DNA from: a virus
Taxonomy: Duplodnaviria; Heunggongvirae; Uroviricota; Caudoviricetes
IMG/VR virus record: IMGVR_UViG_2617270950_000011
Length of the DNA stretch: 30,900 bases
Direction: 5' to 3' (one strand)
A program made the translations under genes and the position numbers. Position 1 is the stretch's first letter; every line of letters begins with the position of its first letter. This document shows positions 3,410 through 22,308 of the stretch, in pieces. Under the pieces are notes generated by a model that saw only the letters and a list, made by a program, of their open reading frames with translations, made no database searches and was not told the DNA's origin.

Positions 3410-3427
3410 AGCTGATCCCCTGTTTTT

Positions 3428-4522: not shown

Positions 4523-5864
4523 TGATCACCTCCACGCGGCGGCCACCCGGAACAAAAACCGGATCGGGGATATTGTTTCTGCGGACAAAATACTGCCAGC
4601 GGCGGCTGTTACCGGTGGCACGGTACAGCGTGACCAGTGCCGGTTCGGTGGTTCGCACCATGACCTGAAAAGCACCGGGAAGATGCACGCTCCGCGTGGT
4701 TAAATCTTCTGTCAGCGCAAGCCCTGCATCACGTAATGCAAGGGCGGTGCCGGTATGGCCCTGTGCGGACAGATCCAGCACCTGTTGTTCCATGGCATCG
4801 CTCAAATCCCGGTTGATACGCTGCACATCAGCAGAACTTTCCAGCCAGGCCAGTCCGCCCGCACGGTCAGTATCCTGAACGTGCGTCGTATTCTGCCGGA
4901 TGACCTGATCCAGCAGTTTTCCGACCGTCTGCGCCTGCGACACCAGGGCTGCACTCTGCATGACGCTCCGCAGCAGACGGATATTGTTCTGTGCCGCAGG
5001 CGTCAGACCAATCAGGCGCTGCGGATCATCCTGTTCGCTGAGGGTGTAACGCAGGGAAGAAAGTGTGCGGTACAGCTGCGGCATGGCCTGCTCTGTCGTG
5101 CTGTCACGGTTTGTGGTCAGGCTGCCGGACGGCGTTCCGGCTTTTCCGGTCAGCGACAGGGAAGGATCGCCGGGCAGCCCCGCCAGCACGGCAAACATTC
5201 CGGCCAGCGATTCAGCCATGCGACGGGGCGCATTAATCAGGGCGGCGGCATTCCCTTTCAGGGCAGTAAAACTGGCCGTAAAGGCACTGATATCCTGCAC
5301 AATCCCCATCCCTGAAACGGCATTCTCCAGCGCATCAATTTTATCGCTGATGGTGTCGGTCATGGCCTGTACATCATGCAGACCGTCTGAAATCACCGTC
5401 CAGCCGTCTGAAAGTGTGTTAAACAGCTGATTCATTGCTGAGCCGCTTTTCTGCTCCAGCGCAGCTGCCGTATCTTCTGCCACCGAAGGGGCGGTATCGT
5501 CACTGGCGGGGATCACGTTGATCGTGAACTCAACCGTTCCCTGCTCGTTGGCGTTATAACGGCTTTCAAAGCTGTTTATCAGCACGTTTAACGTGCCGTA
5601 ATCCGGGTGCATCAGTTCACCGGCACCGGGTGCACGCAGCGCATCACGCAGGCGGCTTCGCTGTGTCTGAAGATCGTCTCCGGTCACTAGAACCGTGAAT
5701 GTGAACTCCGGGAGTTTTGGCCCCAGATCATCCGCACCGCCGCTTTCACGCAGTGGGTATTCACGGCGCACAATGTTACGTCCGCCCCGTTCCCGCTGCT
5801 CCTGATAAACCAGGAACGGTACGCCACGAAAGGAGCCACGCCCCGGCGTGTCAGTAGAGGCCAT
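4506..5864 (-). CDS. Mu gpN-like tail/DNA circularisation protein
   Basis: 452-aa ORF directly downstream of the tape measure gene with overlapping boundaries. Confidence 0.5.
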   Translation of the reverse strand: MASTDTPGRGSFRGVPFLVYQEQRERGGRNIVRREYPLRESGGADDLGPKLPEFTFTVLVTGDDLQTQRSRLRDALRAPGAGELMHPDYGTLNVLINSFESRYNANEQGTVEFTINVIPASDDTAPSVAEDTAAALEQKSGSAMNQLFNTLSDGWTVISDGLHDVQAMTDTISDKIDALENAVSGMGIVQDISAFTASFTALKGNAAALINAPRRMAESLAGMFAVLAGLPGDPSLSLTGKAGTPSGSLTTNRDSTTEQAMPQLYRTLSSLRYTLSEQDDPQRLIGLTPAAQNNIRLLRSVMQSAALVSQAQTVGKLLDQVIRQNTTHVQDTDRAGGLAWLESSADVQRINRDLSDAMEQQVLDLSAQGHTGTALALRDAGLALTEDLTTRSVHLPGAFQVMVRTTEPALVTLYRATGNSRRWQYFVRRNNIPDPVFVPGGRRVEVISEQQD

Positions 5865-7908: not shown

Positions 7909-8035
7909 GGGTTACTGCTTCGTTCTGAGAATTTTTTCGGTCTGTCGGCAGTGCCGGTAAAGCTGCGATAAGGGGAGGTTAAGCGCCCACTCCGGGCCGC
8001 TTTTTGTCACCATCCCCAGCACAATTGCGGCTTCT

Positions 8036-8512
8036 TCAATCTGATCCCGGCACTGCATCTGGTCGCCCCCGTTCAGCGACCAGCTTTCCGGCCATCGCGG
8101 AATCAAGCAGGCTTACTGCCGCCATCAGTCGGGAGAGATCGCGCTCGCTGAGCTGTCCTATCTGACGCGGAGACAATGGCCCCTCAATCTGGCCGACAGC
8201 GGCAATCTGACGGCGCAGCAGCGCAATGCCGCGCAGTGCCGGTGAGGCCACAAGAACCGGACCGTTTCGGGTTTCCATAAGACGCTCGGCCTCGCTCTCC
8301 GCATCAATGCTGTCTTTTGCCGTCAGTTCGCGGAAGGTGACGCGGTATTCACGGGATTCCCCGAACGGCAGACCGTCGAGCAGATCCACATAGCCGTTCG
8401 CCAGTTGTTCAGCCAGCCCGGCGGTGCGGGGATCGCCGTCTTCAAGTGCATCCCGGATAGCCTCCATCACGGCCTCGTCAGAAACCGCCGTTTTTTTCTT
8501 ACGTGTGCTCAT
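8036..8512 (-). CDS. Putative tail assembly chaperone
   Basis: 158-aa acidic ORF between tail tube and tape measure, the position chaperones occupy in contractile-tail phages. A 64-aa ORF in the +1 frame (7912..8106) bridges to the tape measure start. Confidence 0.4.
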   Translation of the reverse strand: MSTRKKKTAVSDEAVMEAIRDALEDGDPRTAGLAEQLANGYVDLLDGLPFGESREYRVTFRELTAKDSIDAESEAERLMETRNGPVLVASPALRGIALLRRQIAAVGQIEGPLSPRQIGQLSERDLSRLMAAVSLLDSAMAGKLVAERGRPDAVPGSD

Positions 8513-8526
8513 TACATTTTTCCTGA

Positions 8527-8892
8527 TTACTGGACACGGGTACTGGTGGCGCTGGCGAACTTCGCGGAGATATCACCACCACCGTCAAGCGAGGCCGGTT
8601 CACTGCTCCAGGCCTTCGTCATCATGTGGACTTCACCGGTATCGGCCACGAACTCAATCGTGACCGCAGTCCAGGTGTTGATTTCATCGGCAGCCGGTGA
8701 ACCTTCTCCGCCAGCCGGAAATTTACAGTCCAGCGTCGCCTCACGGGGTTTCTCGCGATAGCCGTAAACTTTCGCGCCTTTCACCACTTCACGCTCAAAG
8801 CCGGACGGGGAGAACGTGGCCCCCTCAAGGGTGTCGTACTCCTGCCCGTTCACACGGATGGTGGCCGTGCCCTGATACTGTTTTCCGCTCAT
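8527..8892 (-). CDS. Tail tube protein
   Basis: 121-aa ORF immediately downstream of the sheath gene. Confidence 0.6.
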   Translation of the reverse strand: MSGKQYQGTATIRVNGQEYDTLEGATFSPSGFEREVVKGAKVYGYREKPREATLDCKFPAGGEGSPAADEINTWTAVTIEFVADTGEVHMMTKAWSSEPASLDGGGDISAKFASATSTRVQ

Positions 8893-8900
8893 GCCTTACC

Positions 8901-10403
8901 TCACAAAATGAAACGGATCTGCGCGGCCATGAAGCGGAACTGGTTAACCAGATCCGGTGTACACATCACATCCAGACGGTTACGGTCTTTTGTGTTGCGC
9001 TCCACGAGCAGATTCTTTTTAAAGGTGTCCAGATTTTCGACCAGTCCCAGATCCACCCATTCTTCCCCCAGCGAAATTAACTGAAGTTTCATGATCTCCG
9101 GTGTCACGATATTCTGACCGGCACGAACGGGCGTCCCGTCATCAGCCAGTTTATGGCGCGGAAAACGCTGCGTGATAAAGGTGCGCAGGGAATAACGCAG
9201 ATATGACAGGGTGTAGATGGTTTCCACATCCAGATAGCTGGGATCGATTTCGCCGTATGCATTCTGACGGTACATCGTCACCTGACGTTCAATCTGCACC
9301 ACATCCGCGGCCGCGACGGTCACCGTGGACATGCCGGTATAAAGCAGGCTGTTTCGCTCTTCCCGCGTCAGACGATCCGGTGCTTCAGGTGCCATACGGG
9401 CAGGCAGCGCCAGTGTCTGTAATGGTCGGGCCGGATCCGTTGACAGGGAGGGCGCACAGACCGCACAAATGGAGGCAGCCCAGACATAATCCGGCTCTGG
9501 TGCTTTAGGAATAGAAGTGCAGGTAAACAGGAAGTCATTACGGGATTCACCAAAACTGGTTGCCGTACCGAAGGTGCCGGTATGCGCCATCCAGACCATA
9601 CCGTCCGACATTTTTACCGGTCCCCAGCGTTTCAGCAGTTCATCCGCCAGAATTTTGAGATTTGCCGCATCCTTATAGGGCATGACGATGTAGTTGTACT
9701 GACGATTCCCCATCCCTGAGACGCTACGGGTGATATCGGGGTTTGTTGCCTTCTGTGTTGGCGCGACGAGCTCCAGCGTAAGACCGGCCGGTGTAGTTTC
9801 ACCGTCATAATAGTTCACCCGTAAATCATGAGCTGAGCATTCACCGATAAAGCGGGCGTTAACCCCCATGCTGCCTTTAAGTCCTTCAGCATTATCACCA
9901 CTGACTTCAGCTGCGATAGCAGTGAATGGCGCATCAGTGTCAGCGTTAATGACCTTAGCCAGCTCTTCCACAAGCTCTTTACCTTTTTTCCCCTTACTGA
10001 CGGGCAGGAGGTAACGGCGACCGCCGATGTAAACACTTAACACCCCGTCTGCCAATGCTGTTCCAATGATATTCATCACGCATGCCCTGGACTGACCTGT
10101 TCCAGCCCCCTGTGCAATGGCATATAACTCTGTGTCAGGGTTAATGGCGATAAATTCCTCTACCATCAGTGCAATCATGGAACCTCGCCCCCAGAGTTCT
10201 CTTGCTTGTGAAGCTCGGGTAATACGTACTGGTACATCAAGCTGACCGCGCCCCTGAATGGTAGTGTCTTTCATTGCAGCCTGACCAAACAACAGTACCG
10301 CCTGACGCTGTGGTGGAGTGCCGGTCACGGCCATTGAATTATTGATTTCAATCTGTACCAGCGGAATGCGATTGTTATCGCCGATATAATCAAAGTTAAT
10401 CAT
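8901..10403 (-). CDS. Contractile tail sheath protein (Mu gpL-like)
   Basis: 500-aa ORF; C-terminus ...DVMCTPDLVNQFRFMAAQIRFIL resembles sheath C-termini; followed by tube, chaperone and tape measure. Confidence 0.75.
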   Translation of the reverse strand: MINFDYIGDNNRIPLVQIEINNSMAVTGTPPQRQAVLLFGQAAMKDTTIQGRGQLDVPVRITRASQARELWGRGSMIALMVEEFIAINPDTELYAIAQGAGTGQSRACVMNIIGTALADGVLSVYIGGRRYLLPVSKGKKGKELVEELAKVINADTDAPFTAIAAEVSGDNAEGLKGSMGVNARFIGECSAHDLRVNYYDGETTPAGLTLELVAPTQKATNPDITRSVSGMGNRQYNYIVMPYKDAANLKILADELLKRWGPVKMSDGMVWMAHTGTFGTATSFGESRNDFLFTCTSIPKAPEPDYVWAASICAVCAPSLSTDPARPLQTLALPARMAPEAPDRLTREERNSLLYTGMSTVTVAAADVVQIERQVTMYRQNAYGEIDPSYLDVETIYTLSYLRYSLRTFITQRFPRHKLADDGTPVRAGQNIVTPEIMKLQLISLGEEWVDLGLVENLDTFKKNLLVERNTKDRNRLDVMCTPDLVNQFRFMAAQIRFIL

Positions 10404-10681
10404 CAGGACGTCCCCTTATCTGATGCTGCGGTTTTTTCAGCCACCGCCGCAGTTTTTTCTGCTACCGCTCCCGCTGGTTTTGCCGCCGCGCCGGTATTAG
10501 CAGTTGTGGCAGCCGGGGCAGGCTCCGCCGTTTTATCCACCACAATGACGTCGCCATCATTAAGACGGCGGCACCAGAACGGAGTGAAGGGTTTCTCTTC
10601 CCCGTCCTGAGAGAGCGGAGTCATCGTGTCGGGATCGCGGATCAGGCATCCCGGCGCAGGTTTAATAAAAATGGTTGTCAT
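10403..10681 (-). CDS. Hypothetical phage protein (Mu gp38-like position)
   Basis: 92-aa ORF with an Ala/Thr-rich C-terminus, ATGA-coupled to the sheath gene. Confidence 0.4.
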   Translation of the reverse strand: MTTIFIKPAPGCLIRDPDTMTPLSQDGEEKPFTPFWCRRLNDGDVIVVDKTAEPAPAATTANTGAAAKPAGAVAEKTAAVAEKTAASDKGTS

Positions 10682-10684
10682 CTG

Positions 10685-11248
10685 TTATTCCTCTGACAGT
10701 CCGGCGTTTTCACCGGCGGCAGTTGCACCAGGCAGACGGATGTGTGCCTTAAATTCCGGCGTGCCTTCCGGTTCGGTAAAGGTTTCGTAATGGCGCAGGA
10801 AATCATCCAGCGAGCTGATATCCGTCAGCGGGTCGATCATTTCCTCGCATGAGAAATACAGGGCGTACATCACGGCACCGCTGCCTGCCTGCGTTTCGGT
10901 GTAACCGTTGACCGCCTTTTCAAAGTAAAGCGGTGAGGTTTTTTCTGCTCTGAAGCCGTCCAGCACGGTAATCAGGCGGGCCACAATCTGATAAAGCCCG
11001 GGACGGCTGACCTCACGGCCATTGAGCATGTCGCCGATGACGTAGAACACCCAGTGACTGACCAGACGCCCACGGGTACGCCCTTCACCGGCACCCAGCC
11101 AGGCAACATAGATAGCCGGGGCGTTAATCAGCATGGTGCGCAGTACGCTGTCGCTCCAGTCGCCGGGATGTGTGTCAACAGACACCAGTTCATTCCCGAA
11201 ATACTCACGGATACGGGCGATGTACGCCTGCTCGGTTTCCGTAATCAT
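10685..11248 (-). CDS. Phage morphogenesis protein (Mu gp37-like, DUF1834-type)
   Basis: 187-aa ORF (MITETEQAYIARIREYFGNELVSVDTHPGDW...) upstream of the sheath; family assignment from memory. Confidence 0.45.
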   Translation of the reverse strand: MITETEQAYIARIREYFGNELVSVDTHPGDWSDSVLRTMLINAPAIYVAWLGAGEGRTRGRLVSHWVFYVIGDMLNGREVSRPGLYQIVARLITVLDGFRAEKTSPLYFEKAVNGYTETQAGSGAVMYALYFSCEEMIDPLTDISSLDDFLRHYETFTEPEGTPEFKAHIRLPGATAAGENAGLSEE

Positions 11249-11372
11249 ATAAAGCCCTTCTGGTTGCGCCCGAACACCGCCGCATCAGACTGCACCTGCG
11301 GTAAATCCCCGGATTCAGGGGCCGCACCGTCTGTATCCACGCCGACCGGCACGTTACCGTTCATGACATCTT

Positions 11373-12518
11373 TCAGCCAGGCCAGCGCCTCACGGTATCC
11401 GAGTAATACAGAAACGGTTTGCCATGATGGCGAATACCGTGCTGTATGGCACCGGCTACGGCGAAAACATTTTCAGCCAGGTCAAGGCTCCAGCCCACCA
11501 CAAAGCGCGTGCCACCGTCGATAACAAAGGTCACTTCCGGTGCGAATGGCCGCCCGTGAACCGGGTGCGCGCATTTCAGCTTCATGCCGTGACCGTCACC
11601 AATCCAGACATAATTCACCGGCATTTTTGACCAGTCGCGGCGCGTGAATCCCTCAAGCTGGCGGTATTCACTGCCGGTAACCCGTCCTTTTTGTTTCACC
11701 ACTTCCGGCAGTTTCTTCATTGCGCGGCGAATGGTGTCATAAGACGGCATGATATCGAGCATATAAGGCTCATCAGCGTGCCGGTGCTGCCATTCGGCAA
11801 CAAAATCCTCGTAAGCCTCGGTCATTGGTCGGCCGTTTGACTGGCGATACTGCGCCAGAAATTCGGGCAACCAGTTAATATCTTCGGCTTTTATTTCCTG
11901 GCGTTTACCTGGTGCCAGCAAAAGCAGGCGTTCAGCAGCGTTCTGTGCCTTATTAAAGGCCGCAATCCAGCGTTTCAGCGTGATTTCACTCAACACGCGA
12001 CTGTTTCCCTTTCTGGCGTTCGCTATCTCAACCATTGCCACAATGCGCTCATCCAGTTGCGAGTGTGACAGGCGGTCAACGATGAACCAGATAGCTTTAG
12101 CGCAGCTGAAACCGGGTTGTTGCGTGAATTTCAGCACCTCACTGACGATCGCAATGCGTGCGTCTGCCACCTGGCGCTGGTTTTCAGTCAGGGCATTGAG
12201 GCGTTCGACCATCAGTTGTGGTGATCCGCGATATGCCTCCACCGCATCAACCACGGCAGACGAGCGTCTGGCCTTTGTCACCACCGGAGCCGGTGATTCA
12301 TCGGCTTTTTGCGTCATCAGTTGCAGGGCATAACGTTCGCGTAATGCCTGCTGTGTCACTTCAGGTAAACAGTCAATGCTGTATTCAAAACCTTTAGCGC
12401 CTTTCTTGCGGCGTCTGCTGGTTTCGCTGGTTGCATACTTCCTGATTGAATAGCGAACGCCTTGCTCCGTTCCCGGCATCCCCGGTAATCCAACCAGTTC
12501 TTTGACTGAAGCAAACAT
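11373..12518 (-). pseudogene. Mu-type DDE transposase (MuA-like), C-terminally truncated after the second catalytic Asp
   Basis: 381 aa. N-terminus has the Mu winged-helix end-binding pattern (SVKELVGLPGMPGTEQGVRYSI...GAKGFEYSIDCLP); WIGDGHGMKL and ...YYSDTVRRWPG* match the first two DDE aspartate regions of MuA (recalled). The catalytic Glu and C-terminal domains are missing, and the next gene is gp37-like, not B. Confidence 0.75.
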
Positions 12519-12520
12519 AA

Positions 12521-12751
12521 TTACGCGACCTTACGAATGTAGCGGCTGGGCCAAATCTCCTCGGGCGGCACCCCCAGGCATTCCGCGATAATCCCCTCAT
12601 ACTTGGGAACATGGCGGTATACCGCGTTGTACAGATTGTTCTGACCCACGCCAGCTTTACGGGCCAGCGCCCTCATGCTTCCTTCTCTGGCTCTGACTTC
12701 CCCCAAAATTCTTTGAGGATGCCAATCAGGCTTAACTTCATTTCTCGCCAT
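12521..12751 (-). CDS. ner: Ner-like DNA-binding regulator
   Basis: 76 aa; ...WHPQRILGEVRAR...ALARKAGVGQNNLYNAV...PEEIWPSRYI matches the Mu Ner/Nlp pattern (recalled); sits immediately upstream of the transposase on the same strand. Confidence 0.75.
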   Translation of the reverse strand: MARNEVKPDWHPQRILGEVRAREGSMRALARKAGVGQNNLYNAVYRHVPKYEGIIAECLGVPPEEIWPSRYIRKVA

Positions 12752-12780
12752 GATTCATCTATCCTAAAAAGTTACGAAAT

Positions 12781-12804
12781 TTGATAACTAAACTTAGTTA
12801 TCAA
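12781..12804. promoter_or_regulatory. Operator-like 24-bp palindrome in the divergent ner/repressor control region
   Basis: TTGATAACTAA-AC-TTAGTTATCAA: 11-bp perfect inverted arms, with further TTGATA half-sites just upstream (~12779) and downstream (~12806); lies between the divergent Ner-like and repressor genes. Confidence 0.5.
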
Positions 12805-12935
12805 GTTTGATATAAGTATTGATCCACTTCTGCTTCATGTAAAGCAAAAAAACATCTTTCTTTTGTCTATTGTGGATCAATGGTTGCTGACAACACTAAA
12901 AGTTAATAATTTCAAATTGATAGGAAGAAAAGAAA

Positions 12936-13481
12936 ATGAACAAGCAAACAACAACATCTCTTTCTTTTCCTGGTGGTAGAAAAGAAAGCATTGCTGAGCG
13001 TCTGAAAAGGCTGATTGGCTCCCGCAGCGTCAGAGCTGCAGCAAGAGATTGGGGGCTTTCATTTTCAACACTAAACAATTATCTGTCTCGTGGCACTGAG
13101 CCATCCTTAAGTGTCGCCCTTCAGATTGCGTCTATCGAAGGAGTAAGTGTTGAGTGGCTATGTGGATTCAGTGATGCATCACAAGTGAATCGGTGCGAGA
13201 TCAAAGAAAATCAAGATGAAAGCAAGAAGATAATTATGACGATTATCAGCGCACTTGATGAAAAAGACTTAGAGCAGCTATCGAAAAATTTGGTTCTGAA
13301 TGGAGCCAAGTACTTAGCTCGGTTGTTAGAGCCTGAAAATCAAGATCTAATCCGCTTAGAAGGAAGGAAAAGAATAGCTGCATTACAGCTTGAAGGTATG
13401 TCTGACGAACGCGTCAGAGAGATTTTGGAAGAAACTGAGAGAAGTCGCAAATCTAACGCGGTAGAACCAAAAGCGGGTTAA
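12936..13481 (+). CDS. Phage repressor with CI-type N-terminal HTH (Phage_CI_repr-like)
   Basis: 181 aa; ...ERLKRLIGSRSVRAAARDWGLSFSTLNNYLSRGTEPSLSVALQIASIEGVSVEWLCG is a CI-type helix-turn-helix; divergent from ner across the operator palindrome. Confidence 0.7.
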   Translation: MNKQTTTSLSFPGGRKESIAERLKRLIGSRSVRAAARDWGLSFSTLNNYLSRGTEPSLSVALQIASIEGVSVEWLCGFSDASQVNRCEIKENQDESKKIIMTIISALDEKDLEQLSKNLVLNGAKYLARLLEPENQDLIRLEGRKRIAALQLEGMSDERVREILEETERSRKSNAVEPKAG

Positions 13482-13555
13482 TAGCATTAGCCCGCATTTT
13501 GCACTATATCGAGTATTTCGCATTGTTTGGAACGCCTTAAAAGACTAAAACCACA

Positions 13556-13711
13556 GTATCAAATGAGTTGCCGATTTTATAATAAATGACTAATTATTGC
13601 ACAATCGGTATCAAATAGACCTTATCCGCACATCTAGCCATCACCTGTTTTATTTCAGTATCTTACAGGTGATTTCACCTCCTTTCACTAAAACCCTTGT
13701 CGGTATCAAAT
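13556..13711 (+). repeat. Three direct copies of GTATCAAAT plus a 9-bp inverted repeat at the repressor/gene A junction
   Basis: GTATCAAAT at 13556-13564, 13608-13616 and 13703-13711; inverted repeat ATCACCTGT / ACAGGTGAT at 13640-13648 and 13665-13673; TTATCCGCA (DnaA-box-like) at 13622-13630. Function unknown. Confidence 0.4.
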
Positions 13712-15715
13712 GATTCACCTGGTTATATTAACGAGGCCGCCGCAGCATTCTCATGGAACAGCCCGAAAAAGGCTATTAACCCTTATCTGGACCCGGCGGA
13801 AGTTGCGCCGGTTTCTGCGCTTTCAAACCTGATCACTCTGTACGCTGCCGATAACGAGCAGGAACAACTGCGCCGCGAGGCACTGAGTGATCAGGTTTGG
13901 GAGCGTTATTTCTTTAATGAATCCCGTGATCCTGTCCAGCGCGAAATGGAGCAGGATAAGTTCATTAGCCGGGCAAAGTTGGCGCATGAGCAGCAGCGTT
14001 TTAACCCGGACATGGTCATTCTGGCAGACGTTAACGCCCAGCCTTCCCATATCAGCAGGCCGCTGATGCAACGTATTGAATACTTCAGCAGCCTTGGTAG
14101 GCCAAAGGCTTATTCCCGCTATTTACGTGAGACGATTAAGCCATGTCTGGAACGGCTGGAGCATGTACGCGACAGTCAGCTATCCACTTCTTTTCGCTTT
14201 ATGGCAAGCCATGAAGGGCTGGACGGCCTGCTGATTCTGCCTGAAATGAGTCAGGATCAGGTGAAACGCCTGTCCACCCTTGTTGCTGCGCATATGAGCA
14301 TGTGCCTTGATGCAGCTTGTGGCGATTTGTATGCCACCGATGACGTTAAGCCAGAAGAAATCCGCAAGACATGGGAAAAGGTGGCAGCAGAAACCCTGCG
14401 ACTGGATGTCATACCGCCTGCGTTTGAGCAACTCCGCCGGAAAAGAAACCGCCGTAAACCCGTGCCCTATGAACTCATTCCGGGTTCGCTGGCGCGTATG
14501 TTGTGCGCCGATTGGTGGTACCGGAAATTATGGAAGATGCGTTGCGAATGGCGGGAAGAGCAGTTGCGTGCTGTTTGCCTGGTCAGCAAAAAAGCATCTC
14601 CCTATGTCAGCTATGAAGCCATGATGCATAAACGTGAGCAGCGCCGTAAGTCGCTGGAGTTTTTCCGTTCTCATGAACTGGTGAACGAAGACGGCGACAC
14701 GCTGGACATGGAGGATGTGGTAAACGCCAGCAGCAGCAACCCTGCGCATCGCCGCAATGAGATGATGGCCTGTGTTAAAGGTCTGGAGCTTATCGCGGAA
14801 ATGCGCGGTGACTGCGCCGTTTTCTACACCATCACCTGTCCGTCACGTTTCCATTCCACGCTAAATAACGGCAGGCCCAACGCTGAATACGTTAATGCCT
14901 GGGCGTCTCTGCATCGTGTTCAGCAATTCCGCTTCTTTGGCATTCCGGGGCGTCAGGCTTACCGTGAACTGCGATTGCTGGCTGGTCAGGCGGCAAGGCA
15001 ACAGGGGGACAAAAAAGCAGGTGCGCCGGTACTGGATAACCCGCGCCTTGATGCAATCCTGGCTGCTGCTGATGCTGGTTGTTTTGCCACCTACATCATG
15101 AAGCAGGGCGGCGTACTGGTTCCCCGCAAATATCACCTCATCAGAACTGCTTATGAAATCAACGAAGAACCGACCGCATATGGCGATCACGGTATTCGTA
15201 TTTATGGCATCTGGTCACCCATTGCAGAGGGCAAGATCTGCACTCATGCGGTGAAGTGGAAAATGGTTCGTAAGGCCGTTGACGTTCAGGAGGCGGCAGC
15301 CGACCAGGGCGCTTGCGCCCCTTGGACTCGTGGCAATAACTGTCCCCTTGCTGAAAATTTGAACCAACAAGGGAAAGACAAATCAGCTGATGGGGATACC
15401 AGGACGGACATTACCTGCATGGATGACAAGGAGTTGCACGATTACCTGCACAGTATGAGCAAAAAAGAGCGCCGGGAACTGGCTGCAAGGTTACGCCTGG
15501 TGAAACCGAAACGGCGTAAAGACTACAAACAGCGAATTACAGACCATCAGCGACAGCAGCTCGTCTATGAACTGAAGTCCAGAGGATTTAATGGCAGCGA
15601 GAAAGAGGTCGATTTACTCCTTCGCGGCGGCAGTATTCCGTCAGGAGCAGGCCTGCGTATCTTCTATCGGAACCAGCGTTTGCAGGAAGATGATAAGTGG
15701 CGAAACCTGTATTAA
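13697..15715 (+). CDS. P2 gene A-family replication initiator homologue, apparently missing the HUH/Tyr catalytic core
   Basis: 672-aa ORF from a TTG start (true start uncertain). [23 protein letters not shown] and [27 protein letters not shown] resemble recalled P2 A segments, but no HxH or YxxxY motif occurs anywhere in the ORF. Confidence 0.7.
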
Positions 15716-15807
15716 TTACGCGGGTTAACAATTCGTGCTCTTAATAATACCAGGCATATCAGGCTGATGAACGTAAAAAAACGTTTTACATCAGTAAGAT
15801 TATTATA

Positions 15808-15827
15808 TACTGTAAATATAAACAGTG
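15808..15827 (+). promoter_or_regulatory. LexA (SOS) box
   Basis: TACTGTAAATATAAACAGTG fits CTGT-N8-ACAG with an AT-rich spacer; about 40 bp upstream of the small ORF and DinI-like gene; a second half-site (TGTATACAGTA) follows at ~15832. Confidence 0.7.
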
Positions 15828-15868
15828 GTTATGTATACAGTATTGCTTGTGGTGTCATAGGAGGAAAG

Positions 15869-16057
15869 ATGCAGGACTATTTTTTGGAGTCTTTGAAGCT
15901 CCAGCGCATTGATTTTTTTCTTAAGCTTGTAGCGGCTAGTGAGTGTAGTGATGAAGAGAAGGGGCTGGCTTTGCAGTGGGTTTCTGAACTGACAGATGAA
16001 CTCATGGCAAAAATCAGAACCCACGAATACAACCGCTCAATGGATGTCATCAGCTGA
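15869..16057 (+). CDS. Small SOS-controlled protein, possibly Tum-type antirepressor N-domain homologue
   Basis: 62 aa from the ATG at 15869, preceded by AGGAGG. Downstream of the LexA box and upstream of a DinI-like gene, the arrangement of the 186 tum locus; the function is inferred from context only. Confidence 0.4.
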   Translation: MQDYFLESLKLQRIDFFLKLVAASECSDEEKGLALQWVSELTDELMAKIRTHEYNRSMDVIS

Positions 16058-16067
16058 GGTGACTTTT

Positions 16068-16301
16068 ATGCGCATTGAAATAATGATCGATAAAGAGCAG
16101 AAGATTAGCCAGTCTACCCTAGACGCCCTTGAATCCGAGCTTTACCGCAATCTGCGCCCCCTATATCCAAAAACGGTAATTCGCATCCGCAAAGGTAGCT
16201 CTAACGGTGTGGAACTGACCGGACTGCAACTGGACGAAGAAAGAAAACAAGTGATGAAAATTATGCAGAAGGTGTGGGAAGACGACAGCTGGCTGCATTA
16301 A
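16068..16301 (+). CDS. DinI-family protein
   Basis: 77 aa: MRIEIMIDK...LDALESELYRNLRPLYP...KQVMKIMQKVWEDDSW aligns along its length with E. coli DinI (MRIEVTIAK...IDALAGELSRRIQYAFP...ISEILQETWESADDW, recalled); GAGGTG ribosome-binding site. Confidence 0.8.
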   Translation: MRIEIMIDKEQKISQSTLDALESELYRNLRPLYPKTVIRIRKGSSNGVELTGLQLDEERKQVMKIMQKVWEDDSWLH

Positions 16302-16309
16302 GAAACCTT

Positions 16310-16345
16310 GCCCCCAAGAGAATTTATTCTGATGGGGGCTAGTTT
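16310..16345 (+). terminator. Putative intrinsic terminator after the DinI-like gene
   Basis: GCCCCCA ... TGGGGGC stem with an inner AGAAT/ATTCT stem, followed by TAGTTTGGG. Confidence 0.45.
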
Positions 16346-16707
16346 GGGCAACGAGTGAAACGAGGCGTAAGGTGGGCGGCCATTTTGATAAGTGATTGTA
16401 CGCTTTGTGTTGTGAGTTCAACGGGTCGATGCAACGCTATCCTTAATCAAGGGGACGTTGCTCATACCCATCGATGCAATGAAAATCCATACTCATGGGG
16501 AAGACCAGAATGTCCCTGCCTTTTTCATTTTGTTCAGCACATGCACTATGGCCATTGCCTTCCCAAGCTAGCTATCGTAATCACTCAGCGTCAGTAAACT
16601 ACTGAAAAATTGTTTTACCTTGTATATCAATAATGCCAAATCATACCCAAAAAATCGAAAATAATTAGATCGACAGGCAGAAGGCAATGTGAATAATCTT
16701 AAAAACC

Positions 16708-16737
16708 TTGACTGCCAGTGAGGTTTGGTTCTATAAA
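16708..16737 (+). promoter_or_regulatory. Candidate sigma70 promoter for darT-darG
   Basis: TTGACT (16708-16713), 18-bp spacer, TATAAA (16732-16737); AGGA ribosome-binding site before the ATG at 16769. Confidence 0.45.
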
Positions 16738-16768
16738 TAGACTTACGAATTTGAAAGGATGAGTTGAA

Positions 16769-17350
16769 ATGAGCGAAAGGAAAAGAATTGAAGATCAGTA
16801 TCTTCTCTATCATTTAACATGTATGGATAATCTACCTAGTATTTTAGACACAGGATTAAGATCTCGTGCATCAGTAAAAGGTGAGTTTGTTGATGTGGCC
16901 GACGGTGAAATAATAACAGGTCGCGAAGCATTAAATTTGCAAACAATGGTTCCTTTTCATTTCTTTACTAAGAATCCATTTGATGGAAGAGTCCTGAAAG
17001 ATCATAAGGAAAAATCATTTTGTATTATTTCGGTTTGTCGGGCATTTGCCAAAGAAAATGGTTGGAAAGTTATCCCTAAACATCCATTATCCACCAGTTC
17101 TGTTATAGACCTCTTAGATTATGAACAAGGAATGGCCCAAATTGACTGGGAGCTTATGAATATAAGGGATTATAAAAATGCAGAATGCAAATCTGTATGT
17201 ATGGCTGAGTGTTTATCAAGTGTAACGGTCGAGCCGAAAAATTTCCATTGCATCTTTGTCAAAAATGATAACGAAAAAAAATATGTTGAAGGGTTGATAA
17301 AACAACAAGGATTAAGTATATTGATAACGATCAACACTTATATGTTCTAA
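16769..17350 (+). CDS. darT: DarT, DUF4433 ssDNA ADP-ribosyltransferase toxin
   Basis: 193 aa; N-terminal LLYHLTCMDNLPSIL matches the DarT YHITHIDNL signature; VPFHFF and a downstream AECLS (candidate catalytic Glu) motif; followed 4 nt later by a macrodomain gene. Confidence 0.8.
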   Translation: MSERKRIEDQYLLYHLTCMDNLPSILDTGLRSRASVKGEFVDVADGEIITGREALNLQTMVPFHFFTKNPFDGRVLKDHKEKSFCIISVCRAFAKENGWKVIPKHPLSTSSVIDLLDYEQGMAQIDWELMNIRDYKNAECKSVCMAECLSSVTVEPKNFHCIFVKNDNEKKYVEGLIKQQGLSILITINTYMF

Positions 17351-17354
17351 TTCT

Positions 17355-18326
17355 ATGATTAAGTATGCAAGCGGAAATCTTCTAAACTCTACATCGCAAG
17401 CTCTTGTGAATGCTGTAAACTGCCAAGGAGTCATGGGAAAGGGTATTGCTTTGGCTTTTAAAGAAACTTTTCCCTATAATTTCGAAGTTTATAAGAGAGC
17501 ATGCACCACTGGTACAATGAAAATTGGACAGGTTTTAATTGTAGAGGAAAAGGGAAAAATAATCGTAAACTTTCCCACTAAAGATAGTTGGAGAAAAAAA
17601 TCAACATATGATTTTATCTCGCAAGGCCTTGAATCTTTAGCAAAAATTATAGACGAAAAAAAAATTACATCAATATCAATACCACCTTTAGGCTGTGGTA
17701 ATGGGGGCCTCGATTGGAATAAGGTTGAGGCTCTTATTTTAAAAACTTTTCAAAATTTAGATAATGTTGATGTGGTAATTTATCCGCCTGCAACTAACAA
17801 TCAGCTTTCAAAAAATAAAAATGTTATTAATGCTAAGCATCTTTTGGTTCACTACGCCTATGGAAAATTAAAAGTTAAGCAAAAATATTCCCTTTATACA
17901 GTTTTTTATATTTGCGAATGTATTGAGAAAGCAAATCTTTTTTTATTCGATTTTAAACATGGTCGGCCATACTCTTCTGAGTTAGAAAATATTATGAAGG
18001 ATATAGCAAACCTTAAAGTTGAGTTGCAAGGAGATTTTGATGCTTTTATTGAAGATTATATTAATACTCATCAATCCAAAGAGTTACAAACCGAGTTTGG
18101 TAAACTAATCTCAACTTTAAATCCAAGTATAAGTTTTCTCAATGCTCTTAAAAATAAGATTGATTATACAGATAGCGTACATGTGATCACGAGAATTGCT
18201 AAAGAAAAAGATCATGGCTTGCATATTGACAATTTCAAAGAATATGAAAATATTGTGCAGCATTTAATTAAAAATGGATTGGTAATCGAAGATATTTTTA
18301 ACGAACTAAAAATAAAGGGAAGTTAG
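17355..18326 (+). CDS. darG: DarG, macrodomain antitoxin
   Basis: 323 aa; N-terminal ALVNAVNCQGVMGKGIALAFKETFP is a macrodomain signature; translationally coupled to darT (stop 17348-17350, ATG 17355). Confidence 0.8.
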   Translation: MIKYASGNLLNSTSQALVNAVNCQGVMGKGIALAFKETFPYNFEVYKRACTTGTMKIGQVLIVEEKGKIIVNFPTKDSWRKKSTYDFISQGLESLAKIIDEKKITSISIPPLGCGNGGLDWNKVEALILKTFQNLDNVDVVIYPPATNNQLSKNKNVINAKHLLVHYAYGKLKVKQKYSLYTVFYICECIEKANLFLFDFKHGRPYSSELENIMKDIANLKVELQGDFDAFIEDYINTHQSKELQTEFGKLISTLNPSISFLNALKNKIDYTDSVHVITRIAKEKDHGLHIDNFKEYENIVQHLIKNGLVIEDIFNELKIKGS

Positions 18327-18999
18327 TAGCGCTATTTTCAATTTTTTTGCTGAAATTGCGCATGCACACTCTTACGCATTATAGATGCGGCGTTAATCCC
18401 GCCAGGAGTGTTGTTTAATAAATTGAACTATTTCTGCATTGAAGGATCAACTTACGCATTCGCTGACAACGCAGGCACTCTCCTGGCTAAGCAGAAATTC
18501 AGAGTAACCAACTGGCACTTTTACAACAATTTTCTTATCAGTTGCGGCTCCATGACTTTCTGGTGGGATAACAAAGCAATTAAGGCGTGGTATTGTAAGT
18601 ATCCCGCATAATCATGCTAGTAACATTTGTCCCCCATGTAACCTAATTAAGGCAACTTCCGCTCTTCGCTCACAGTGAACCTCCATGTTTGTAAACCCGT
18701 ATATTTCGTTTTTCAAGTGGTCATTCAGATACGGATTTTCACTTCTCTTGGCTGTGCATGTCTATGCCGCATGAATCCGCATGATCGTTTGAGGATCGTT
18801 TTTGCTGAGGCCCCCCAGAACTGGCGGGCTTTTGCTTATGTCATGCAGGTGCATGAAAACCACTGCATAAAGCGGGCAGGCGTGGCGGGGATACGAGCGC
18901 GCGCTAACTCATAAATCTTAGATTATTAGTGGATTTATCTCATTGAAATGTGCACTATTCCCAGCATTGAGTTGTACCAGATGTCTTTATGGAGGGACT

Positions 19000-20766
19000 G
19001 TGGCTTTTGTAACTGATATTCGGCTTGAAGATAATGCTATTGCTGCACCTGCGACAGCACAGGTTATGGCTCAGAGGCTAGGATCTGTATTACGTAAGAG
19101 ATATGAAGAATTCATCCATAAAAGAGAGTGTGCACCAGGCCAAGCAGACTATGATGTAAAAATGGCTAGCAGGGCTTTAGCTGCATTCACTATGTATCAG
19201 TTAGGATGTGTGGATGATAAGTATGCAGGGGAGTCTGTATGTGATAGTAGTGAAGATGGTGGTATAGATGGAATAGCAATCAACCATAACGAAAAAATCG
19301 TTGTTGTTGTTCAATCAAAATTTCACCAATCGGGAAACGGCACTTGGACAAGAGCCGATTTTATGTGTTTTAAGGATGCTTGTGAGAAGCTACAAAGTGA
19401 AAGATACGAATTATTTGATTCCATATTGCAAAATAAAAGCGGGGAAATAAGTGCGGCTTTAAGTAGTTTTGAATACAAGTTCATCTTTGCGATGGCGCAT
19501 ACAGGTAAAAAAGGTGCTGCAGAGGAAATATTAAATGATATGCGGGAATGGCAATATCAATTAAACGCTGCAGCTTTTACACCTGAGGATGAGCCTAAAG
19601 AGAACTGGGGATTTCAGGTTCATTTAATATCCTCTGAAGATATGATGCATTGGTTACAGAATGGCTCTCGAAATCAAATTGATCTTAACAGGGTTGAAAT
19701 TGAGCGTTTTGGATTTTTGAATGAACCATATCAAGCTTTTTACGGGGCTATTAGTGGTGATCAAGTTGCAGAATGGTGGGAAGAGCATGGTGCTCGATTA
19801 TTTACAAAAAACATAAGGAATATGCTTGGTAAAACAGAAGTGAATGAGGAAATAAAAAAGACAGCTATAGATAATCCTGATATGTTTTGGTTTTATAATA
19901 ATGGGATTACTGTACTGGTTAAGGAGGTTGTTCCTCATAGACGAAACGCAGCTCCTAATATAGAGAGAGGGATTTTTGATTTTCGTGATGTAAGTGTCAT
20001 TAATGGTGCACAAACAGTCAGTAGTATTGGCGCATGTAAAGATGCGCTTGGTGAAAACATATATAGACTCAAAGTGCCAGCTAGATTCATTGTTATAGAT
20101 GATGATACTGATAATTTAACTGCAAATGCGATTACAAAAGCTAACAATTTCCAAAATAGAGTATTGGGAAGAGATTTTGCGTCGCAGCAGGCAGATCAAC
20201 ATAGATTGGCAAGGGAGTTAGTGCTTGAAGGATATCAATATCAGTTACTAAGAACAGATGAAGATCATTCACAGACAAATACGAAAGTCATTGACTTGGA
20301 TGAGGCGCTCAATGCACTCGCATGTTTAAGTAAAAATAATACGGTTGTATCGACACTAAAATCAAATCGCGGTAGGTTTTTTGAAAATTTTGAAGGCTCT
20401 CTATATAAAACTATTTTCAATCCAAGATTAAGTGGTTTAAAACTTATCAATACTGTTCTACATTTTAGAGTTATAGATAAGTTGATCGGTAAAACATTAC
20501 TATCAGTAGATAAAACTACCCATAGTCGCAAGCATTTAATTATTACGCATGGTAATAGATACTATGCGTCTGTGCTATTGAGCAACGTTTCTGGGATACA
20601 TAATAGCTCAGAAATTCTTGTTCCAGATGAAAAAAATCTTTCCGAAGAATTAAGTGCATTAATTCAACGTGCTGAAGAGTACATTGAAGATAATTACCCG
20701 AATGCCTATCCGGCAAGATTTTTTGCAAATCCAACGAAAATACAAGAGTTATACGATAATGTTTAA
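19000..20766 (+). CDS. Uncharacterised 58x-aa to 607-aa protein, tentatively AIPR-family with an N-terminal PD-(D/E)xK-like motif; candidate defence gene
   Basis: Maximal ORF 18943..20766 starts at TTG; the GTG at 19000 follows GGAGGG and the ATG at 19066 is an alternative. Motifs seen: DGGIDGIAINHNEKIVVVVQSKF, FWFYNNGITVLV, VINGAQTVSSIG. No Walker A, so not P2 Old. AT-rich. Confidence 0.5.
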   Translation: MAFVTDIRLEDNAIAAPATAQVMAQRLGSVLRKRYEEFIHKRECAPGQADYDVKMASRALAAFTMYQLGCVDDKYAGESVCDSSEDGGIDGIAINHNEKIVVVVQSKFHQSGNGTWTRADFMCFKDACEKLQSERYELFDSILQNKSGEISAALSSFEYKFIFAMAHTGKKGAAEEILNDMREWQYQLNAAAFTPEDEPKENWGFQVHLISSEDMMHWLQNGSRNQIDLNRVEIERFGFLNEPYQAFYGAISGDQVAEWWEEHGARLFTKNIRNMLGKTEVNEEIKKTAIDNPDMFWFYNNGITVLVKEVVPHRRNAAPNIERGIFDFRDVSVINGAQTVSSIGACKDALGENIYRLKVPARFIVIDDDTDNLTANAITKANNFQNRVLGRDFASQQADQHRLARELVLEGYQYQLLRTDEDHSQTNTKVIDLDEALNALACLSKNNTVVSTLKSNRGRFFENFEGSLYKTIFNPRLSGLKLINTVLHFRVIDKLIGKTLLSVDKTTHSRKHLIITHGNRYYASVLLSNVSGIHNSSEILVPDEKNLSEELSALIQRAEEYIEDNYPNAYPARFFANPTKIQELYDNV

Positions 20767-20796: not shown

Positions 20797-21321
20797 TTAG
20801 AAATGGTATTCTTGGAATTCAATAACACCTTCTTTTATGAAATTGTTTATTTCTTGTAATCTTTTTTGCAATGGCAATAATTCATTACGTACAAATACTT
20901 TACTCGCCTTCTCTACATCTCCAAAGCCCCCAACATTATTAGGCATTATCCCCATCATTTGCGGCGGCACACGGTGTGCCGCCATCATGTCGTCCCGGCT
21001 CACGTTCTTGATATTTAGAAACTCATCCTTCGCCGCGACTTCTGACAACGGGATAATCTGAAGCCCGTCCTTTTTGCCGTTAGGAGAGTACATAAACAGG
21101 TTGCGGAAGTTGCCTGGCCCTTTGGCGCTTTTCATTGCGTTGCGGAGGTTGTTCACATCTTCTTGGTTCTGCGCGGCATCGGTCATGTACATGATGAAGC
21201 CTGCATGACTACCGTTAATGTAATACTTGCGGCGGAACAGCGTGGCGGACTCGTTGAGCAGGGCCGACGGAATGGCAGAAAGATAACCGGGCAGGCCGTA
21301 GACCTCCTGGTTGATGTCCGG
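20797..21321 (-). pseudogene. Portal protein (P2 gpQ-like) C-terminal fragment
   Basis: Frame open from 21321 down to the stop at 20797; ...AHRVPPQMMGIMPNNVGGFGDVEKASKVFVRNELLPLQKRLQE resembles portal C-termini (recalled). The N-terminal portion is absent. Confidence 0.5.
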
Positions 21322-22244
21322 TTATCGGCTTTGTTGCGCCCACGGTTGAATAGCGCACCGGACCAGAACGGATAAGCACTGTGTGTCAGGCTGGATGGCG
21401 TGGAAAAATAGGTTTGTCGCCATTTCTTGTGAATAGCCATACCGGAAGCCACTTTGCGCAGCTCCTGGAATTTCGGTATCCAGAAATATTCATCCAGATA
21501 CAGGTTGCCGTGATAACTCTGGGCAGTGCGGGCATTGGTGCCGAGGAAGTAAAGCGTGGCCCCGTTAGGAAGCACCATCGGATCGCCTTTCAACTCCACC
21601 TCCACTTCTTTGGCGAAGTCGATGATGTACTGCTTAAAGACGTGGGCCTGTGCCTTGCTGGCGGAAAGGAAAATCTGGTTACGTCCGGTCAGCAGGGCGT
21701 CAATCAGGGCTTCACGGGCAAAGTAAAAGGTCGCGCCGATCTGGCGTGACTTCAGCAGGTTGCGGATGCGGTTGGTTTTTCCGGCTTCCCACCAGTGGCG
21801 CTGGTAGTTGAACATGGAGGAATGGAAGATTTCTTCCAGCTTCTCAATCTGCTCATCGGTGAAAACATTCTTTTCCGGCTGACGGCGTGGGCCTTTGTTG
21901 CGGTTGGCGACGTTAGGGTTTAAGTCGGATTCGTTGCCGCCATTGTTAAACTTGCCGATCCGCGCGTGGCGCTCAGACTGGCGCGCCAGCAGGTCAATCT
22001 CTTTGAAATCTTTCCCTTCTTTGTGCTCCTTCATGATGAGCTGGCAGTAGCGTGCGGCGGTGGTGAGCTGCATCTGATCCAGCGGCCCATAGTCACCCCA
22101 CTTGTCGCGTTTTTTCCAGCTGTGAACGGTTGCAACTTTCTCGCCCAGCATTTCAGCAATGCGGGCTACGCGGTATCCCTGAAAGTACAGCAGCATGGCC
22201 TGCCGACGGGGATCGAGATCTGCGGGTGTCAGTGTGGTGTTCAT
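21183..22244 (-). pseudogene. Terminase large subunit (P2 gpP-like) N-terminal ATPase fragment running out of frame into the portal fragment
   Basis: Walker A-like [12 protein letters not shown] and Walker B-like [10 protein letters not shown]; credible sequence ends near ...[11 protein letters not shown] (~21350), after which the frame reads low-complexity junk to the stop at 21183. The nuclease half is missing. Confidence 0.7.
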
Positions 22245-22290
22245 GGCACAAACCTACAGCCTTGAATGAAGGCTTTCCCCGCCTGCGGTT

Positions 22291-22308
22291 TGTGTGGTTG
22301 TCTGGACA
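22291..22308. promoter_or_regulatory. TGT-N12-ACA dyad (Ogr-type late promoter element) in the gpP upstream region
   Basis: TGTGTGGTTGTCTGGACA; the P2 late-promoter dyad is normally centred near -55. It lies about 50 bp from the gpP start and may be the PP or PO element. Confidence 0.4.

Follow-up and report, generated by a model that had tools for sequence, protein, structure and literature searches.

In an Escherichia coli prophage of the Fels-2/186 type (Peduoviridae), the two small genes just 5' of the DarTG defence genes very probably form the SOS operon of this phage group in its split tumA-tumB form, with repression by LexA, induction by DNA damage and partial read-through into the genes behind it. 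Prophages of the Fels-2/186 type sense DNA damage through a LexA-repressed antirepressor, not through cleavage of their repressor. We propose that in an undamaged cell LexA would occupy two overlapping boxes over the -10 region and keep the promoter off and that, by homology, DNA damage would yield activated RecA, bring about the self-cleavage of LexA and allow the operon to be transcribed. The product of the first gene, TumA, would bind the 186-type immunity repressor CI and keep it off its operators, so that the lytic genes would be derepressed with the repressor left uncleaved. The DinI-like product of the second gene, TumB, would bind RecA filaments and modulate the SOS response, and part of the transcription would pass a structured 3' element into the cargo of the gpA-gpQ hotspot, here DarTG. 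All the features that a first-pass annotation had listed were found in place in the window, by which we mean the whole 30.9-kb stretch of DNA that was analyzed.

A predicted promoter with two overlapping LexA boxes

We counted as a LexA operator any 20-nt palindrome of the type TACTG(TA)5CAGTA that contains the core CTGT-N8-ACAG. The operator in front of the two genes consists of two overlapping boxes of this kind (15808-15842), offset by 15 nt. The distal box, box 1 (TACTGTAAATATAAACAGTG, 15808..15827), has three mismatches to the 20-nt consensus and a perfect core, and it is the sole site in the window with three or fewer mismatches (shuffled sequences with a match: 0/100). The near-consensus LexA box of the first-pass annotation is therefore real and unique in the window, and its claimed overlap with the promoter also stands: box 1 begins at the proposed -10, a geometry that is the same in the annotated p95 promoter of phage 186. 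The putative -10 hexamer, TACTGT (15808..15813, + strand), makes up the first six bases of box 1 and corresponds to the annotated -10 of p95 in both sequence and overlap. We assigned the -35 hexamer, TTTACA (15785..15790, + strand), 17 nt from TACTGT, by the same p95 annotation. This hexamer is kept in all six aligned Fels-2-type sequences (6/6), with a divergent spacer. The promoter TTTACA-17-TACTGT is thus predicted by likeness to the p95 layout; a generic sigma-70 scan missed it, since TACTGT and TATAAT agree at just three of six positions.

Box 2, which the first-pass annotation overlooked, is the proximal one (CAGTGGTTATGTATACAGTA, 15823..15842). It has a degenerate left half, overlaps box 1 by 5 nt and is kept in relatives; in the alignment of Fels-2-type phages its CAGTGG...TACAG pattern is retained. 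The single consensus LexA box of phages 186, PSP3 and ESSI-2 aligns with the position of box 2. When an equal region was scanned in all species-representative loci, a LexA-like 20-mer lay within 100 nt upstream of tumA in 32 out of 33, and among the IMG/VR contigs a LexA box lies upstream of tumA in 72 out of 73. Double boxes occur in 21 of 34 loci (the window counted), and the operator stands out as an alignment footprint, retained in orthologous loci with divergent flanks.

The double operator of the window can be aligned nearly position by position with the colicin N, colicin Y and pesticin promoters, which share the double overlapping SOS boxes in a near-identical 36-nt operator (window TACTGTAAATATAAACAGTGGTTATGTATACAGTATT, colicin Y TACTGTACATAAAACCAGTGGTTATGTATACAGTATT). 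When PLSDB was searched with the 51-bp operator region, 207 plasmid records matched, including many small mobilisable plasmids and 48 records from Yersinia; in each of the three matches that we inspected (colicin N, pesticin and colicin Y), the operator lies just 5' of the bacteriocin gene. The resemblance is confined to the operator: neither the -35 region nor the sequence 3' of the operator is related, and the colicin and pesticin promoters drive a bacteriocin, whereas the window operator drives a predicted phage antirepressor. Overlapping SOS boxes of the colicin type are reported to be occupied by two LexA dimers and to keep basal expression very low (PMC2994835); by analogy, the predicted boxes of the window probably also hold two LexA dimers.

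A split tum module

The first gene of the operon (15869..16057, + strand) encodes a 62-aa protein that we predict to be a TumA-like antirepressor (phrog_698, 3.6e-38). Its strong ribosome-binding site, pointed out by the first-pass annotation, is an AGGAGG (15859..15864, + strand) that can be read from the sequence 4 nt before the ATG, and most related loci retain (A/C/T)AGGAGG ahead of their start codon. We take the median dN/dS of tumA (0.077, 342 pairs) as evidence that the gene is coding. The protein is 98.4% identical to STM2728 of Fels-2 and 100% identical to copies in many P2-like phages of Klebsiella and E. coli. The second gene, tumB (16068..16301, + strand), begins 10 nt past the stop codon of tumA, has a GAGG ribosome-binding site of its own and encodes a 77-aa protein whose proposed membership of the DinI family is borne out by Pfam (DinI, 6.6e-23; 81.3 bits, cut-off 24.2; all 63 profile positions covered). 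It also matches E. coli DinI (PDB 1GHH) over its full length (2.7e-6). With the chromosomal DinI of E. coli it shares the Pfam family, but it scores only 42.7 bits against the cut-off of 111 bits of the NCBIfam chromosomal DinI equivalog, and it is a phage paralogue of the TumB type, not an orthologue. In 21 out of 33 related loci, DinI follows tumA, with a gap of 9-12 nt and one exception at 38 nt.

The first-pass annotation took the gene pair for a split version of phage 186 tum, and each half supports this. The DinI-like protein shares 41% identity with the C-terminal half of 186 Tum (residues 71-145, E 3e-24). For the 62-aa protein, the expected similarity to the N-terminal half did not appear in BLASTP, which gave no alignment with 186 Tum, but it did emerge at the profile level: a 28-member TumA family profile (A3) aligned with 186 Tum in register over residues 3-44 (hhalign, E 4.5e-8, probability 94.9%), and the N-terminal half of 186 Tum matched TumA's own PHROG family, phrog_698 (5.9e-6), with reciprocal cross-matches between the PHROGs. 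BLASTP likewise gave no alignment between TumA and the TumA of PSP3, or between the latter and 186 Tum; the TumA profile linked weakly to PSP3 TumA (E 0.0039). When 1.84 billion cluster representatives were searched with HMMER, TumA had 66 matches, nearly all of them stand-alone proteins of 50-100 aa. We found no DinI fusion in the four longest matches that we inspected (P0121, P0143, P0163 and P0179), which look mis-called or chimeric.

The split reading is correct and already known, since the PSP3 record names tumA and tumB and Lemire et al., 2011 describe the split. In the PSP3 record, tumA ('UV induction of prophage') and tumB are annotated in an arrangement like that of the window. Lemire et al., 2011 report that tum is split by a stop codon in Fels-2 and PSP3 and that in PSP3 the antirepressor activity lies in the upstream gene, for which a personal communication is cited (PMC3121763). 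Antirepressor activity of the Fels-2-type protein is likewise given there second-hand, from genetics and personal communication (PMC3121763), while 186 Tum binds CI and blocks operator binding (186 record annotation; PMC3121763). In Fels-2-positive Salmonella, STM2727 rose 5.5-14.8-fold after mutagen treatment (PMC2225428).

The closest of these counterparts to the window is Fels-2 of Salmonella Typhimurium, in which STM2726.1 (STM2727 in LT2 numbering) is 100% identical to the DinI-like protein and both the double operator and the position after gpA are as in the window. Fels-2 differs in being inducible, with its own CI, Apl and CII, whereas the window prophage is dead, lacks CI and carries DarTG as cargo; Fels-2 also lacks the 83-nt element described below and has an orf97-like gene directly after dinI. 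In PSP3, too, the split tum follows gpA under a LexA box, with a TumB 78% identical to the DinI-like protein of the window and the 83-nt element 3' of tumB, but its TumA is only about 22% identical to that of the window, its LexA box is a single consensus box rather than a double one, its CI (286 aa) is of a different build and the 3' element is present in two copies. Phage 186 has its LexA-repressed p95 promoter after gene A, with the -10 TACTGT inside the box, and the module of the window occupies exactly the position of p95-tum, after gpA. As in the window, an antirepressor half and a DinI half are present in 186, hotspot cargo follows and the 83-nt element is found; the cargo of 186, orf97, lies on the p95 transcript. 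The two halves are, however, fused in 186 into a 146-aa Tum with internal starts, the LexA box is single, and the element lies between orf97 and the canonical terminator t95b, close to the latter. A further parallel is offered by the dinI-gfoA/gftA operons of the Gifsy prophages of Salmonella, which combine a LexA-controlled small antirepressor with a DinI homologue and can act in trans on other prophages (PMC3121763), but there dinI comes first, the phages are lambdoid and the repressors and antirepressors are unrelated. P2 was considered as another possible carrier and rejected: its orf91 is a DUF3850 protein and not DinI-like, and P2 is without such a module.

The module sits in a dead prophage

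The remnant of the replication gene A (gpA, 13729..15715, + strand) matches Pfam Phage_GPA (3.9e-70) at profile positions 1-212 of 321 only. It lacks 393 bp in frame compared to Klebsiella phage KP12, homology begins only at 13728, and the 5' end has been swapped for foreign DNA; we did not find the gpA/Mu-like junction in 5,426 complete E. coli genomes. Portal and terminase are present in the window as fused remnants, and no homologues of CI, Apl or CII were found in its 30.9 kb. The prophage in the window is dead. With a gpA replicase that is cut short and carries an internal deletion, and with no CI target encoded in the window, the module is left an orphan; its sole routes of action would be in trans, on another, related prophage resident in the cell, via DinI, or via read-through.

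This setting raises the possibility, which we consider unlikely, that the operon is an inert relic, inherited with the decaying prophage, without a target or role, and intact only because the decay is recent. Besides the damaged gpA, portal and terminase and the missing switch genes, the high identity of the module itself is consistent with this: intact phages carry copies that encode identical TumA and DinI proteins (100%) and match the DNA at 98%, leaving little time for decay. Yet the promoter, both LexA boxes, both open reading frames and the 3' element are all intact next to phage genes with large deletions, and E. coli E423 retains the module together with DarTG in the same defective prophage. 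Antirepressors of defective or foreign prophages are, moreover, able to act in trans (PMC3121763), and the window covers only 30.9 kb, so that a target prophage could lie elsewhere in the genome.

The 3' element and the cargo

The operon ends in a conserved 83-nt element (16297..16378, + strand) that consists of a covarying hairpin (16308-16341) and a block, GTTTGGGCAACGAG-TGAAA-CGAGGCGTAAG; past this element, the variable cargo starts. The hairpin that the first-pass annotation had seen after dinI is present at 16310-16339, with a predicted folding energy of -25.6 kcal/mol (z = -2.2) and compensatory changes in 10 of 14 pairs. In the alignment, 92.5% of cells are paired, compared to 76% in shuffles (0/500 reaching this value) and 38-56% when the partner is slid, and a covariance model (R1) scores 74.3 bits at the element in the window. 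The conserved block comes after the LexA box, tumA and dinI in 72 of 73 IMG/VR contigs. A search of Rfam with positions 15000-17500 (E <= 1) returned nothing, and the element is absent from Rfam. We rejected an interpretation of the element as an integron attC-like cassette-boundary repeat: it occurs once per locus in 30 loci and the window, with a single exact match per contig in 83 IMG/VR contigs, forms no arrays, and is present twice only in PSP3.

On the 3' side of the hairpin, the window has UAGUUUGGG and most relatives have AAGGUUGAACAACG. The U-tract of an intrinsic (Rho-independent) terminator is missing, and a terminator scan did not call the hairpin. In the 186 record, the p95 transcript covers tum, passes the partial terminator t95a, continues across orf97 and stops at t95b, beyond the element. 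In several species, an open reading frame begins 2-3 nt past the element, using the GAGG of the element as its ribosome-binding site and leaving no room for a promoter. Given the missing U-tract, the place of the element 5' of t95b in 186 and the genes that directly follow it elsewhere, read-through past the hairpin is likely, and because the element does not have the form of a canonical terminator, some of the transcription probably enters the cargo.

In the window, the first cargo of the gpA-gpQ hotspot is darT-darG (16769..18326, + strand; PADLOC DarT 2.2e-36, DarG 5e-80), with darT at 16769-17350 (+ strand, Pfam DarT 9.2e-22) and the macrodomain gene darG at 17355-18326 (+ strand, Pfam Macro 6.9e-19), and an AIPR/AbiU-like protein is encoded at 18943-20766; the module does lie directly 5' of defence genes, as had been noted. 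The DarTG toxin damages DNA and triggers SOS. The darT gene is co-oriented with the operon and starts 468 nt after the dinI stop codon, and the terminator scan called no terminator-like site between the hairpin and darT. It is plausible that SOS-driven transcription reaches darTG. The coupling of the defence island to DNA damage that the first-pass annotation envisaged may follow from this, although some 390 nt of DNA specific to the cargo lies ahead of darT and contains a good promoter-like site (TCGACA-16-AATAAT, 16670-16697, 10/12 matches) and no LexA-like box was found near darT in consensus and core scans.

These observations bear on a second alternative, that damage-dependent transcription into the cargo DarTG is the main selected role of the operon and that antirepressor function is secondary. 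A covarying hairpin without a U-tract, the extent of the p95 transcript, the genes placed directly past the element and the lack of a called terminator-like site up to darT would all fit such a role, and the Salmonella study lists STM2726-STM2727-STM2728, that is, a cargo gene together with both module genes, as one operon among those picked out under mutagen treatment (PMC2225428). We nevertheless regard this role as improbable, in view of the separate promoter-like site within the cargo-specific DNA, the lack of a LexA-like box near darT and the orientation of the cargo across loci. The idea that cargo is always co-oriented with the operon proved weak: the first cargo open reading frame is co-oriented in 21 of 34 loci and antisense in 13, so read-through into the cargo is not a universal design.

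The 83-nt element sits exactly where cargo is swapped and marks the left edge of the defence hotspot; its presence suggests that an SOS promoter often drives the hotspot cargo. Two published studies of the gpA-gpQ hotspot state that the mechanism of cargo exchange is unknown, and their main text makes no mention of LexA, SOS, DinI or Tum. A tentative and rather doubtful extension would be that the SOS promoter and the non-terminating element together form an 'entry port' that puts the first gpA-gpQ cassette, here DarTG, under DNA-damage control and functions even in dead prophages; the element would then both set SOS transcription into the cargo and mark the left recombination boundary.

The partner repressor and the identity of TumA

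The switch that is missing from the window, 186-type CI with Apl and CII, is present in relatives that carry the same protein, namely E423, KP12, Fels-2, SopEPhi, MLG42 and phi4.1. In phages with an identical or near-identical TumA, CI is homologous to 186 CI over its full length (E 1e-34 to 1e-37), accompanied by Apl and CII. TumA identity follows that of the N-terminal domain of CI (Spearman 0.83) far more closely than that of the C-terminal domain (0.34). The specificity of TumA for CI is not simple, as E423 and KP12 have identical TumA proteins but CI proteins that are only 55% identical.

AlphaFold2 predicts a helical hairpin for TumA (pLDDT 88), for which Foldseek found only generic helical hairpins in the PDB (best E 0.49), an uninformative result. 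A PDB sequence search with the TumA family profile found nothing, and the protein has no family in Pfam or NCBIfam and no match in PADLOC. Many database records label the gene 'hypothetical' or 'levan regulatory'. That the protein is not an antirepressor but does something else linked to SOS, such as partnering DinI or acting as the 'levan regulatory protein' of these records, would accord with the negative family, fold and BLASTP searches and with its pairing with divergent CI proteins, but is highly improbable given the in-register profile homology to the N-terminal half of Tum, the gene order, promoter type and genome position shared with tum and tumA, the co-occurrence with 186-type CI/Apl/CII switches and the tracking of the CI N-terminal domain, and the absence of DinI from 12 of 33 loci, which shows that TumA is not an obligate DinI partner. 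The 'levan regulatory' label is apparently wrong.

Implications

Overall, reading these genes as the split tumA-tumB SOS operon of a Fels-2/186-type prophage mostly confirms textbook biology, and the finding is real but ordinary. Its practical value lies in the annotation of the 62-aa gene; a query spanning it matches 1,629 out of 5,426 complete E. coli genomes (about 30%). For the biology of these prophages, a double operator of the colicin type implies that induction is tight, late and of the subpopulation type.

A split tum-type operon under a predicted SOS promoter

The first-pass annotation had described a near-consensus LexA box at the promoter of a two-gene unit directly upstream of defence genes, and had read the unit as a split form of the tum antirepressor gene of phage 186. 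The observation is confirmed and its interpretation supported. From the sequence we read a predicted -35 hexamer, TTTACA (15785-15790), 17 nt before the TACTGT that opens the LexA 20-mer TACTGTAAATATAAACAGTG (15808-15827). The 20-mer differs from the LexA consensus by no more than three mismatches; no other site in the window comes that near, and 0 of 100 shuffles gave one. AGGAGG (15859-15864) precedes a 62-codon ORF (tumA, 15869-16057), and 10 nt past its stop follows a 77-codon ORF with its own GAGG (dinI or tumB, 16068-16301; Pfam DinI, 81 bits). A stable hairpin (16310-16339) comes after the second ORF, and DarT, DarG and an AIPR/AbiU-like protein are encoded downstream on the same strand. 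The terminator scan flagged a small stem-loop at 16046-16063 (GTCATCAGCTGAGGTGAC, then TTTT) that covers the tumA stop and the ribosome-binding site of dinI; through it, translation of dinI could be coupled to that of tumA.

Residues 71-145 of 186 Tum and the DinI-like protein share 41% identity (E 3e-24). The proposed alignment of the 62-aa protein with the Tum N-terminal half failed in pairwise comparison, which gave no similarity, and held at the profile level: the Tum N-half (residues 1-70) matched phrog_698, the family of the 62-aa protein, in register (5.9e-6), both sequences matched phrog_8554 and phrog_1993, and a profile built from 28 diverse members of the family, drawn from an exhaustive search, aligned with Tum residues 3-44 (E 4.5e-8, probability 94.9%). 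The protein is tied to Tum because of these matches, together with the gene order, promoter type and genome position shared with 186. Its gene is under strong purifying selection (median dN/dS 0.077), and the protein is predicted to fold as a two-helix hairpin. Several records, from phages and from UniRef, call it a 'levan regulatory (domain) protein', a name for which we found no support in this analysis, and most of the others examined call it hypothetical.

The split tumA-tumB module is already known. The PSP3 record, with the same layout as the window, annotates tumA as 'similar to 5' end 186 tum; UV induction of prophage' and tumB as 'similar to dinI and 3' end of 186 tum'; tum in Fels-2 and PSP3 is divided in two by a stop codon, and the PSP3 antirepressor activity is reported to reside in the upstream gene (Lemire et al., 2011; PMC3121763). 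Fels-2 STM2728 is 98.4% identical to the window's 62-aa protein, and the DinI proteins are identical. In a Fels-2+ Salmonella strain a mutagen raised STM2727 5.5-14.8-fold, and this gene was placed in a STM2726-STM2727-STM2728 operon and among LexA-regulon genes (PMC2225428). The module is also very common: the unit is 89-98% identical to matching DNA in 55 phage records, and a 2.7-kb query across it was matched by 1,629 of 5,426 complete E. coli genomes, only 10 of which matched most of the query including its DarTG part. Across 33 loci from different Enterobacterales species the constant core is TumA plus the LexA box, with DinI present in only 21.

A double LexA box

A second LexA box, CAGTGGTTATGTATACAGTA (15823-15842), shares 5 nt with the first. 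The pair is kept in Fels-2-type phages though the flanks diverge, and the arrangement occurs in 21 of 34 loci, whereas only one box, a consensus one, is present in 186, PSP3 and ESSI-2, and it aligns with the second position. Near-identical sequence to the window's 36-nt double operator is found in the colicin N, colicin Y and pesticin promoters, and the 51-bp tumA operator region matched 207 plasmid records in a PLSDB search. Overlapping LexA boxes of this kind are reported to bind two LexA dimers, to leave basal expression undetectable and to fire in few cells (PMC2994835). By analogy, we infer that Fels-2-type prophages would use a tight, late SOS trigger.

A conserved element at the 3' end of the operon

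The hairpin (16308-16341) belongs to a conserved 83-nt element (16297-16378) that lies at the end of the SOS operon and borders the variable cargo on the left; copies also lie at L001:6338-6420, in a related locus, and in PSP3 at L005:5550-5631 and L005:5954-6036. Its stem varies across species with compensatory changes, 10 of 14 pairs being altered on both sides, and 92.5% of cells are paired, against 76% in shuffles (0/500) and 38-56% with the partner slid. Because G.U pairs outnumber A.C mismatches (22 vs 9 by our count), the sequences favour an element that acts as RNA, transcribed from the operon's direction. The stem is followed by a near-invariant block, GGTTGAACAACGAG-N5/6-GCGAGGCGTTAG, and past it the loci are wholly divergent. 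The element is not represented in Rfam. An attC-like cassette site was rejected because the copies form no arrays: a covariance model found one per locus, always after dinI or, where dinI is missing, after tumA (two in PSP3), and each of 83 matching IMG/VR contigs has a single block copy. Of the 73 contigs that were usable, 72 have LexA box, tumA and dinI immediately before the block.

Read-through past 16340 is likely. No U-tract follows the hairpin, which the terminator scan did not call. The single 186 copy lies after orf97, a short way ahead of t95b, the terminator annotated for p95, so that the 186 SOS transcript would, on the record's annotation, pass through it. In several species (L031, L034, L041 and L044, about 4514 onward; truncated in L030) a conserved 85-89-aa ORF (MGKKD.NYQIVYRG...FFQRPKECGGGYW...) begins 2-3 nt past the element with the block's GAGG as ribosome-binding site; in Pseudescherichia (L039:4290 onward) a UmuD-like ORF (MGFPSPAQDY...) takes that place, likewise using GAGG, and these loci leave no room for a promoter between block and ORF. 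In the window darT, which such transcripts may reach, lies about 390 nt further downstream, with no terminator-like site called between; darT also has its own good promoter-like site (16670-16697), and in 13 of 34 loci the cargo runs antisense to the operon. Two papers define this gpA-gpQ hotspot and call the exchange mechanism unknown (PMC9122126, PMC13586616); their main texts do not mention LexA, SOS, DinI or Tum. The double colicin-type operator and the covarying element are modest additions to the known module; we found no description of them, and two older papers may cover them.

An orphaned probable antirepressor and its immunity context

The unit directly follows a P2/186-type replication gene A, and the order in Klebsiella phage KP12 and E. 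coli E423 is int, CI, apl, cII, early genes, gpA, unit, variable cargo, portal. The prophage in the window is dead. Homology to gpA starts only at 13728, without a start and abutting foreign Mu-like DNA. Relative to KP12 and E423, gpA has also lost 393 bp in frame (at 14879-14881), including part of the catalytic domain, so that Pfam covers profile positions 1-212 of 321; in E423, which carries the same DarTG-bearing prophage, gpA is intact. Downstream of the AIPR gene, at about 20797-22308, portal and terminase survive as remnants fused to each other, with 20863-21323 and 21309-22308 corresponding to parts of KP12 that are not adjacent there. The window as a whole has no gene for a CI, Apl or CII homologue, and the module there is orphaned from its repressor target.

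The Mu-like DNA (1-13728) takes the place of the gpA start and the entire early and immunity region. Among its genes are an HTH repressor-like ORF (12936-13481), Mu gp37, a tail sheath, a tape measure and, on the minus strand, one for a protein whose DNA-binding domain is of the Mu transposase type (11373-12518). CACCTG/CAGGTG motifs are repeated near its junction with gpA (13630-13715); a search of 5,426 complete E. coli genomes found this junction in none of them. The darG-AIPR interval (about 18480-18905) holds a fragment annotated in E423 as partial IS5/IS1182 transposase and 150 bp matching KP12.

All phages with the same or a similar TumA have CII and a CI whose homology to 186 CI extends along the full length (E 1e-34 to 1e-37). 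Across nine phages, in pairs that are non-independent and whose p-values are to be disregarded, TumA identity followed that of the N-terminal, DNA-binding domain of CI (Spearman 0.83) much more closely than that of the C-terminal domain (0.34). These comparisons, made on sequences, support a probable antirepressor role for TumA. E423 and KP12, which share an identical TumA, have CI proteins that are only 55% identical. PSP3 and Fels-2-type loci show a mosaic breakpoint between tumA and tumB (window 16055-16070). Because PSP3 TumB is 78-94% identical to Fels-2-type DinI but its TumA only 10-22% identical to Fels-2-type TumA, the antirepressor half appears to swap independently and to follow immunity type.
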